Part shown: one piece after another, positions 59,733-62,889 of the stretch | Position numbering within the stretch: the stretch's first letter is position 1 | Layout: each line of letters begins with the position of its first letter | Source of the DNA: Escherichia coli | GTDB taxonomy: Bacteria; Pseudomonadota; Gammaproteobacteria; Enterobacterales; Enterobacteriaceae | NCBI RefSeq assembly: GCF_016903815.1 | Contig: NZ_CP069973.1 | Direction: 5' to 3' (one strand) | DNA length: 64,000 bases | Program-made: the position numbers and the translations under genes | The notes under the pieces: generated by a model | Database searches by the model: none | What the model was told of the DNA's origin: nothing | What the model saw: the letters and a program-made list of their open reading frames with translations, nothing else

Positions 59733-61403
59733 TCATTTTTTCACTCTCACCGGCATCCCATTTGCCACAAAATATCTTGCCGTGCTCCTCGGCAACGCTT
59801 CTTGCCCGCGAATCATATCCGCTATTTTCTCGCCAATCATAATCGTCGTGGCGTTCAAATTGCCGGTGATAATTTGCGGCATAATTGACGCATCCACCAC
59901 GCGCAGGCCTTCCAGCCCGTGTACGCGGCCTTCGCCGTCAACCACTGCCATCTCGTCATAACCCATTTTGCAGGTACCGCACGGGTGGAAGGCGGTTTCG
60001 GCGTGGTTACGCACGAACTCATCGAGCTGCTCATCCGTCTGGCATTCGACACCGGGGCTGATTTCGCGGCCACGATACTGATCCAGCGCCGGTTGATGCA
60101 TGATCTCGCGGGTGATGCGAATTGCGTCGCGGAACTCCTGCCAGTCCTGCTCGTGCGACATGTAGTTAAACAGAATCGCTGGATGCTGGTGCGGGTCGCG
60201 GGATTTAATCCGCACATGCCCACGGCTTGGCGAGCGCATCGATCCGACGTGGCACTGGAAGCCGTGCTCTTTCACTGCGTTCGAGCCGTTATAGTTAATC
60301 GCCACTGGCAGGAAATGGTACTGAATATTCGGCCACGCAAATTCCTCACGGCTGCGAATAAATCCGCCTGCTTCAAAGTGGTTGCTGGCACCAACGCCGG
60401 TGCCGCCAAACAGCCACTCCGCACCGATTTTCGGCTGATTCCACCACTGCAGGGCAGGGTAGAGGGAAACCGGTTCTTTGCACTCATATTGCAGATACAT
60501 CTCCAGGTGATCCTGAAGATTTTCGCCGACGCCGGGTAAATCATGCACCAGCGGAATATCAAACTCCGCCAGCAGTTCAGCGCTACCCACGCCGGAACGT
60601 TGCAGGATCTGCGGTGAGGCAATCGCGCCTGCACATAACAGCACCTCTTTATTCGCCGCCGCGCGGGTCGGAATGGTGCTGTCGCCTTCCAGCCACTCGA
60701 CGCCCACCGCGCGTTTGCCGTCAAAAATGATGTGATCGGTCATGGCGTGAGTACGAATGGTCAGGTTAGGGCGCGATTTGGCCTGATCGAGATAGCCACG
60801 CGCGGTGCTGGCGCGACGGCCATGCGGCGTGACGGTGCGATCCATCGGGCCAAAACCTTCCTGCTGATAGCCGTTGAGATCGTCCGTGCGCGGGTAGCCC
60901 GCCTGCACGCCCGCTTCAATCATCGCTTCAAACAGCGGATTGACGCCGGGTTTGGAGGTGGTGACGCTCACCGGGCCATCACCGCCGTGGTAGTCGTTCT
61001 CGCCCACGTCGCGAGTCTCGGCCTTGCGGTAGTAGGGCAGGCAGTCGAGATAACTCCAGTTCTCCAGGCCAGGTTCTTGCGCCCAGTTGTCGAGATCCAG
61101 CGCGTTGCCACGGATGTAGCACATGCCGTTGATCAGCGACGATCCACCCAGACCTTTACCGCGTCCGCACTCCATGCGGCGGTTATTCATAAACGGTTCA
61201 GGTTCCGTTTCATAGGCCCAGTTGTAGCGTTTACCCTGTAGCGGGAACGCCAGCGCTGCGGGCATCTGGGTGCGGAAGTCAAAGCGATAGTCCGGGCCGC
61301 CCGCTTCAAGCAGCAGCACGGAGGTATTCGGATCTTCAGTCAGACGGGTAGCGAGAACGTTGCCGGCTGAGCCGGCACCAATAATGATGTAGTCAAATTG
61401 CAA
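59733..61403 (-). CDS. betA: Choline dehydrogenase (GMC oxidoreductase)
   Basis: GMC motifs ([19 protein letters not shown]); start set at TTG 61403-61401, 7 bp after an AGGAGG RBS, giving 556 aa; the ORF-track ATG at 61448 is probably an over-extension. Confidence 0.9.
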
Positions 61404-61416
61404 ATAAACCTCCTGG

Positions 61417-62889
61417 TTAGAATATGGACTGGAATTTAGCCATCTCAACCTGGATGGACTTCACCTGGGTGTAACTCTGGAGCGTCATCACGCCGTTCTC
61501 GCGACCAATGCCGGAGTGTTTGTAGCCGCCAACGGGCATCTCTGCCGGGGATTCGCCCCAGGTGTTGATCCAGCAAATACCCGCTTCCAGCTGATGAATG
61601 ACGCGATGCGCGCGGTTCAGGTCCGCCGTCACGATGCCCGCCGCCAGGCCGTAGTCGGTATCATTGGCGCGGCGAATCACTTCGTCCTCAGATTCATAAG
61701 TGAGAAGCGACATCACCGGACCGAAGATCTCTTCGCGCACGATGGTCATTTCGTCGCGGCAATCGGTGAACACGGTCGGTGCAACCCATGCGCCGTTATC
61801 GAAGCCATCGCCTTTCAATACATCGCCGCCGCACAGTACGCGCGCGCCTTCCTCTTTGCCTTTGGCGATGTAACGCAGCACGTTATCGCGATGCGGGAAG
61901 CTGACCAGCGGGCCGAAGTTAGTTTGCGGATCGAAAACGTCGCCCGCGCGAATGCGCTCAACGCGCGCCAGAATCTTTTGTTCAAATGCGGCTTTGCATT
62001 TCGCCGGAATAAACACGCGGGTGCCGTTGGTACACACCTGACCGGAGCTGAAGAAGTTCGCCATCATGGCGATATCAGCGGCGAGATCGAGATCCGCATC
62101 GTCGAAAACGATCAGCGGTGATTTACCGCCCAGCTCCATGGTCACTTCTTTCAGGGAGGAAGCCGCCGAGTTAGCCATCACTTTTTTGCCGCTGGCGACA
62201 CCGCCGGTAAATGACACTTTGGCAATGCCCGGATGCTCGGTCAGATACTGCCCGGTTTCCGCACCTACGCCCGGCAGCACGTTAAATACGCCGTCCGGCA
62301 GGCCCGCTTCGCTGTAAATTTCGGCCAGCTTTAACGCGGTAAGCGGGGTGACTTCGCTCGGTTTGAAAATCATCGCGTTGCCTGCCGCCAGCGCCGGTGC
62401 GGATTTCCACAAGGCAATCTGGATCGGGTAGTTCCATGCGCCAATCCCTGCCACTACGCCCAGCGGTTCGCGGCGGGTATAAACAAATGACGTCTCACGC
62501 AATGGGATCTGGCTGCCTTCCAGCGACGGGATCAGCCCGGCGTAGTACTCGAGCACGTCCGCGCCGGTAACGATATCGACGGTTGAGGTTTCCGAATACG
62601 CTTTTCCGGTGTCGAGGGTTTCCAGTTTTGCGAGTTCGTCATTGCGTTCACGCAGAATATCAACGGCCCGACGCAGAATACGCGAGCGCTCCATAGCGGT
62701 CATCGCCGCCCAGATTTTTTGCCCCTGTTGGGCACTCTTCACGGCGCGATCGACATCCTCACGCCCGGCGGCCTGCACGGTCGCCAGCACGTTACCGTTG
62801 GCCGGGTTAATGGTCTCGAAGGTGCGACCGCTGGTGGCGGAGGTATAACCACCATGTATATAAAGCTGCTGTTCTGCCATTCGGGACAT
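61417..62889 (-). CDS. betB: Betaine-aldehyde dehydrogenase
   Basis: 490-aa aldehyde dehydrogenase, start set at [14 protein letters not shown]…. Confidence 0.9.

Follow-up and report, generated by a model that had tools for sequence, protein, structure and literature searches.

Evidence that betA of the Escherichia coli betIBA operon starts at a Shine–Dalgarno-led UUG codon

Initiation of betA, the third cistron of the betI–betB–betA operon of Escherichia coli, is assigned here with high confidence to a TTG codon at positions 61403–61401 of the 64,000-nt stretch of chromosome under analysis (the window), where it has the character of an ordinary Shine–Dalgarno (SD)-led UUG start. A preliminary description of this DNA had preferred the same codon to a candidate 15 codons upstream, and that preference is borne out by SD strength, cross-species data, protein-profile boundaries, indels in the intergenic spacer and published in vitro mapping of initiation. 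The competitor that it named, an in-frame ATG at 61448, is not there: codon 61448–61446 reads TTG in the sequence, and TTG is also the start codon given in the list of open reading frames (ORFs). The sole ATG nearby, at 61443–61441, is a methionine codon of betB; its distance of 40 nt from the TTG at 61403 puts it in a different frame from betA. The comparison to be made is thus of two TTG codons that stand 45 nt apart, one with a perfect SD sequence and the other buried in betB.

The site lies at the betB–betA junction of the betIBA operon. Positions 59700–61600 of the window (1,901 bases) are 100% identical to the chromosome of E. coli strain 7/2 and to many other E. coli chromosomes, with betA and betB annotated beneath the match. 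Owing to an IS1 insertion, the window and strain 7/2 are not collinear along the entire length. The elements of the region are as follows, each with its basis in brackets.

59733..61403, minus strand: betA coding sequence, choline dehydrogenase, 556 aa plus stop, 1671 nt (RefSeq PGAP annotation; equal length of K-12 b0311; TIGR01810 score)
61401..61403, minus strand: TTG (UUG) assigned as the betA initiation codon (sequence, K-12 coding sequence, 80-species comparison, INRI-seq)
61409..61414, minus strand: SD sequence AGGAGG, separated from the TTG by the 5-nt spacer TTTAT (sequence; anti-SD duplex)
61404..61416, minus strand: betB–betA intergenic spacer, 13 nt, CCAGGAGGTTTAT (sequence)
61417..61419, minus strand: betB stop codon TAA (sequence, annotation)
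61446..61448, minus strand: upstream in-frame TTG, the mechanical start of a 571-aa ORF and very probably not a real start (ORF list; no SD)
61441..61443, minus strand: ATG in the betB frame, a Met codon of the BetB C terminus, out of frame with betA (sequence)
61461..61463, minus strand: TGA in the betA frame, 5 codons beyond the upstream TTG, at which the open frame ends (sequence)
61362..61379, minus strand: GAGSAG, the GxGxxG dinucleotide (FAD)-binding motif, BetA residues 9–14 in 556-aa numbering (sequence)
61401..61467, minus strand: hypothetical RNA hairpin, in which betB codons some 50–65 nt upstream are predicted to pair with the SD and UUG (minimum free energy (MFE) fold)
61417..62889, minus strand: betB, betaine-aldehyde dehydrogenase, the upstream gene of the operon (annotation)
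62903..63490, minus strand: betI, repressor, the first gene of betIBA (annotation)

On the minus strand, betB ends ...GTT GAG ATG GCT AAA TTC CAG TCC ATA TTC TAA. The SD begins 2 nt past this stop, giving the initiation region the layout TAA-CC-AGGAGG-TTTAT-UUG, and betA continues after its TTG with CAA TTT GAC TAC ATC ATT ATT GGT GCC GGC TCA GCC GGC AAC. The arrangement reported in the preliminary description, with AGGAGG at 61414–61409, 5 nt before the TTG, and the conserved N terminus directly behind that codon, is thus found as stated.

Candidate starts were scored by the best duplex of the 16S anti-SD with the 20 nt upstream. The TTG at 61403 scores −11.0 kcal/mol versus −3.8 kcal/mol for the TTG at 61448, and a duplex of −10 kcal/mol or lower is formed by only 0.7% of the window's 5,986 ATG, GTG and TTG triplets, both strands counted. 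AGGAGG occurs 12 times on the two strands, against 18.5 occurrences expected, and takes up the SD position at just three of the 2,057 TTG triplets in the window; by virtue of this rarity, its presence before the TTG at 61403 is not a matter of chance. The site accordingly has the form of an SD-led UUG start, for which a stretch complementary to the anti-SD is sought 4–9 nt upstream and is found here as AGGAGG at 5 nt.

Two readings give the upstream TTG a role. According to the first, both TTGs are used, the downstream one for the main product and the upstream one for a minor, longer isoform. E. coli datasets commonly report alternative in-frame initiation sites (918 putative new sites are reported by INRI-seq; PMC9825163), but we regard dual use at betA as very unlikely, as it meets the same objections as sole use of the upstream codon. 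The latter, which we rate lower still, would lengthen the N terminus by 15 residues and yield a protein of 571 aa. It can point to the TTG at 61448 being the first start-type codon past the in-frame stop, to the presence of this TTG in 23 of the 33 species in which betA starts with TTG, and to the 571-aa form annotated in a few GenBank entries. The upstream candidate does add exactly 15 codons, as had been noted (longest ORF 59733..61448, 571 aa), but its duplex of −3.8 kcal/mol leaves it without a usable SD, and it lies inside betB, 26 nt before the betB stop, where elongating ribosomes traverse the codon.

Comparison across species bears directly on both readings. We located the conserved N-terminal motif in betA loci from 80 species, drawn from Enterobacteriaceae, Erwiniaceae, Pseudomonas and Moraxella, and defined the homologous codon as that lying 3 codons before the conserved Asp. 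This codon is TTG in 33 species (in Pseudocitrobacter, Enterobacter, Klebsiella, Raoultella, Citrobacter, Lelliottia, Leclercia and others) and ATG in 19 (in Trabulsiella, Pluralibacter, Cedecea, Pantoea, Kosakonia, Tatumella, Rosenbergiella and three Pseudomonas), whereas in 28 (Pseudomonas and Moraxella) an ATG stands one or two codons further 5′ than the homologous position. Alignment with orthologous BetA N termini, the check that the preliminary description had proposed, therefore comes out in its favour, with starts 3–5 codons before the conserved Asp across the orthologues. The upstream alternative is destroyed in 10 of the 33 TTG species, by an in-frame TGA in the Klebsiella/Raoultella group (7 loci) and by TCG in three Citrobacter, so that the TTG is the sole possible start there. 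Some Citrobacter and Trabulsiella species naturally carry a GTT-to-GTC substitution that is synonymous in betB and converts the upstream TTG into TCG.

The spacer between betB and betA adds a second line of argument. E. coli and most others have a spacer of 13 nt, Trabulsiella has one nucleotide fewer (12 nt) and Klebsiella/Raoultella one more (14 nt); these lengths place the upstream 45 nt in three different frames relative to betA, which means that those nucleotides cannot encode BetA. Where the extension would overlap betB (29 nt common to both), 8 of the 13 variable columns fall on third codon positions of betB, which are second positions of the putative extension, so that variation follows the codon phase of betB. 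The claim that the 15 extra residues are unconserved is upheld: no homologue or profile covers them and their frame is shifted in close relatives (by the ±1-nt indels of Klebsiella/Raoultella and Trabulsiella), which indicates that a longer isoform, if made, would be noise, not function. The SD core GGAGG, in turn, is conserved in all but one of 24 aligned enteric sequences, and 5,128 of 5,183 E. coli records are 100% identical over the 60 nt that span −30 to +30 of the start.

The ATG-start orthologues (Trabulsiella, Pluralibacter, Cedecea, Pantoea, Kosakonia, Tatumella, Rosenbergiella and some Pseudomonas) share with E. coli the position of the N terminus (M-[Q/E]-[F/Y]-D-Y-I-I-I-G), a GGAG-type SD upstream and, in the enterics, betB directly upstream. 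They differ in using ATG, not TTG, and mostly in having longer betB–betA spacers of 20–30 nt, although a short spacer is retained in ATG-start Trabulsiella (12 nt) and Pluralibacter (13 nt).

Protein homology sets the same boundary. When the 571-aa ORF was searched against 1.8 billion representative proteins, full-length homologues typically aligned its residues 16–19 to their own residues 1–10, database N termini being themselves predictions. The extension had no homology of its own in this set, although a few alignments extended back as far as residues 8–15. Three profiles begin at the same place: position 1 of TIGR01810 (the betA equivalog) corresponds to residue 19 of the 571-aa ORF, position 5 of NF002550 to residue 17, and position 1 of Pfam GMC_oxred_N to residue 18 (residue 3 in 556-aa numbering). 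That the gene encodes a BetA choline dehydrogenase is seen in its TIGR01810 equivalog score (1029.9 bits against a cutoff of 732.1, with profile positions 1–532 on residues 19–552 of the 571-aa ORF), in both GMC oxidoreductase domains (PF00732, GMC_oxred_N, E = 1.2e-62; PF05199, GMC_oxred_C, E = 4.4e-41), in the N-terminal GxGxxG and in the bet gene context, an annotation check having placed betT and betI–betB–betA around it.

The TTG start is already known, and the claim corrects nothing, given that K-12 b0311 and RefSeq PGAP both use this codon. The RefSeq PGAP betA of strain 7/2 (WP_001521934.1) maps to window positions 61403..59733 (1671 nt, 556 aa), and the coding sequence of K-12 MG1655 (b0311/NP_414845.1, 556 aa) opens on the same ttg, the surrounding sequence being identical. 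K-12 betA, encoding the oxygen-dependent choline dehydrogenase BETA_ECOLI, is the same gene in another strain: it has an identical start region with the same TTG, 13-nt betB gap and 556-aa product, and its protein differs from that of the window by a few amino-acid substitutions, none of them at the start. By exact-sequence look-up, the 556-aa protein, named BETA_ECOLI, is found on at least 1000 contigs. The same look-up returned the extended 571-aa K-12 version for only a few GenBank records annotated by their submitters (KGM63850.1 and others, 5 contigs) and did not return the 571-aa version of the window sequence. For the 556-aa form we calculate a mass of 61,894 Da, in agreement with the approximately 61.9 kDa that the original 1991 paper on the bet sequence is said to give for BetA. 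Full-text literature searches returned nothing relevant on the betA TTG start or on betB–betA coupling.

Published mapping of initiation agrees with the downstream TTG. INRI-seq recovers retapamulin-stalled initiation complexes formed in vitro on a synthetic E. coli transcriptome (PMC9825163). It detected the annotated betA site (NC_000913 327247, minus strand) in five of five replicates, at 104.8, 89.4, 84.6, 69.7 and 91.3 CPM (Table S2, PMC9825163), and listed no alternative betA site (Table S3, PMC9825163). As the synthetic betA transcript starts at −30, initiation at the TTG at −45 is undetectable there (Table S6, PMC9825163); the experiment thus shows that the TTG and its SD are sufficient and is blind to the upstream codon. 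The in vivo Ribo-RET value at the betA site is 0 (PMC9825163), which presumably reflects an uninduced bet operon in that experiment. The parts consulted of the TRAINSPOTTER N-terminomics and TetRP supplements contain no betA entry, those of TetRP listing no bet gene of any kind, and, likewise for the portions covered of the published datasets, we found no in vivo BetA N-terminal peptide or initiation-site peak. Initiation further downstream, for example at an ATT or ATC codon in IIIG or at Met46, has nothing specific in its favour (the first in-frame downstream ATG is codon 46) and its probability is negligible, as it would delete the β1 strand and the GxGxxG that bind FAD, the orthologues all start 3–5 codons before the conserved Asp, and INRI-seq reports no alternative betA site (PMC9825163).

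On the basis of this evidence for the TTG at 61403, we propose that ribosomes initiate at UUG 61403–61401, read as fMet, where they would be placed by the perfect AGGAGG 5 nt upstream. The product would be a 556-aa, 61.9-kDa flavoprotein in which the Rossmann β1–GxGxxG FAD-binding fold runs from residue 4. The 15 upstream codons would then be the tail of betB in another frame together with the spacer, appearing ORF-like only because E. coli by chance has no stop in that stretch.

The geometry of the junction raises the possibility of translational coupling. A gap of 13 nt, in which only 2 nt separate the TAA from the SD, is within the spacing of a coupled pair, and coupling is plausible because an SD so placed would receive terminating ribosomes; whether translation of betA is at least partly coupled to that of betB is, in our estimate, evenly balanced. 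In the MFE fold of 120 nt (−33.5 kcal/mol), GGAGGUUUAUUUG is paired with betB codons 61467–61452. The hairpin has a z score of −1.87, with 6 of 200 shuffles folding equally well, and in the consensus fold of 24 enteric sequences its inner part is kept (GGAGG with CC.UCC), with a covariation term of −0.23 and one Citrobacter sequence carrying the sole compensatory change. Given this term, we rejected the SD-sequestering hairpin as evidence of a conserved structure and treat it as hypothetical; the pairs are almost invariant because they lie within betB coding sequence and the SD, so that covariation is uninformative either way. By sequestering the SD and UUG, the modelled hairpin may enforce coupling, a possibility that we hold tentatively and on balance doubt.

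UUG is a weaker initiator than AUG. Its weakness, offset by a maximal SD, may set the output of BetA relative to that of BetB, although this is speculative. UUG is retained across the Escherichia–Citrobacter–Klebsiella–Enterobacter clade (33 species), always 13–14 nt after the betB stop and preceded by a strong SD with the capacity to pair with betB codons. That it is a selected regulatory feature, by which production of BetA is made dependent on translation of betB or on discrimination by IF3 against non-AUG starts, seems to us improbable; if true, the arrangement would stop BetA from outrunning BetB and would thereby limit the toxic intermediate betaine aldehyde. An internal σ70 promoter for betA was also considered and set aside, a consensus scan giving weak 9/12 matches (TTGAGA...CATATT/TATTCT, 61448–61419), of which the region has 4 against 2.6 expected by chance.

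The practical weight of the assignment is very small. The preliminary description had held that the start codon matters for both annotation and expression constructs. For annotation this does not stand, as the reference annotations already use the TTG and only the few old GenBank entries with the 571-aa extension need correcting, although automated ‘longest ORF’ calls over-extend betA by 15 codons. For expression constructs it does: these should begin at MQFDY..., omit the 45 upstream nt and, for high yield, have the TTG changed to ATG. Of mild interest is the possible, and speculative, tuning of the BetA:BetB ratio by the conserved UUG and short spacer. The betI–betB junction of the same operon is likewise 13 nt long and follows the same plan of TAA, CC, a purine-rich SD, 5 nt and the start (TAACCGAGGAAACGTGATG, compared with TAACCAGGAGGTTTATTTG at betB–betA), but there an ATG is combined with a weaker SD (GAGGAA), in contrast to the TTG and AGGAGG at betB–betA.

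The junction between betI and betB, read on the minus strand at window positions 62890-62905, comprises a TAA stop codon, CC, a purine-rich Shine-Dalgarno sequence (GAGGAA), 5 nt and the start codon, such that a 13-nt gap separates the two genes. This layout is common to the betI-betB and betB-betA junctions of the betIBA operon and, on the strength of that shared arrangement in the sequence, suggests that both junctions may be built for coupled translation.

For betB, the INRI-seq data, an in vitro mapping of retapamulin-stalled initiation complexes, list one more initiation site at an in-frame ATG that lies 9 nt within the gene, in 2 replicates at 8.6 CPM (Table S3, PMC9825163); this ATG corresponds to the second methionine of MSRMAEQQ.

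62878-62880, minus strand: internal betB ATG (codon 4), INRI-seq Table S3 (PMC9825163)

Mechanical delineation of the open reading frame also makes a GTG available one codon 5' of the annotated betB ATG. betI is another gene of which the longest open reading frame exceeds the annotated length, with an ATG at 63508 giving 201 residues (window 63490-63508, minus strand) and the annotated ATG at 63490 giving 195; GGAG lies 8 nt upstream of the latter.

E. coli BetA occurs in two C-terminal forms that share the N-terminus MQFDY, one of 556 residues (ending AKK in K-12 and VKK in the window) versus one of 562 residues ending AKKMSRDVN. The difference in length is due to a polymorphism of the stop codon at the 3' end of betA, where the window carries its stop at 59733-59735. 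Across the collection of E. coli genomes, the betA-betB region was matched on chromosomes 5,177 times and on plasmids 10 times, and about 246 of the 5,426 complete genomes lack it.

Two further features lie elsewhere in the window.

50867-51634: IS1 element, 768 bp
~11240-17710: island remnant adjoining tRNA-Thr (locus L083 of strain 7/2, 12016-18486, offset 777)

The IS1 element, which strain 7/2 lacks although it is identical in other respects, begins with GGTAATGCTGCCAACTTACTGAT and ends with ATCAGTAAGTTGGAGTCATTACC, is flanked on both sides by the 9-bp target duplication CGCTTGATT, and disrupts an aldo/keto reductase gene in its 3' part. The island remnant contains an integrase fragment, an ash-family gene, an AbiEi/AbiEii toxin-antitoxin pair and a very large gene of 3,210 nt annotated as 'RNA-directed DNA polymerase'; it has the appearance of a defence hotspot carried by a P4-like satellite.
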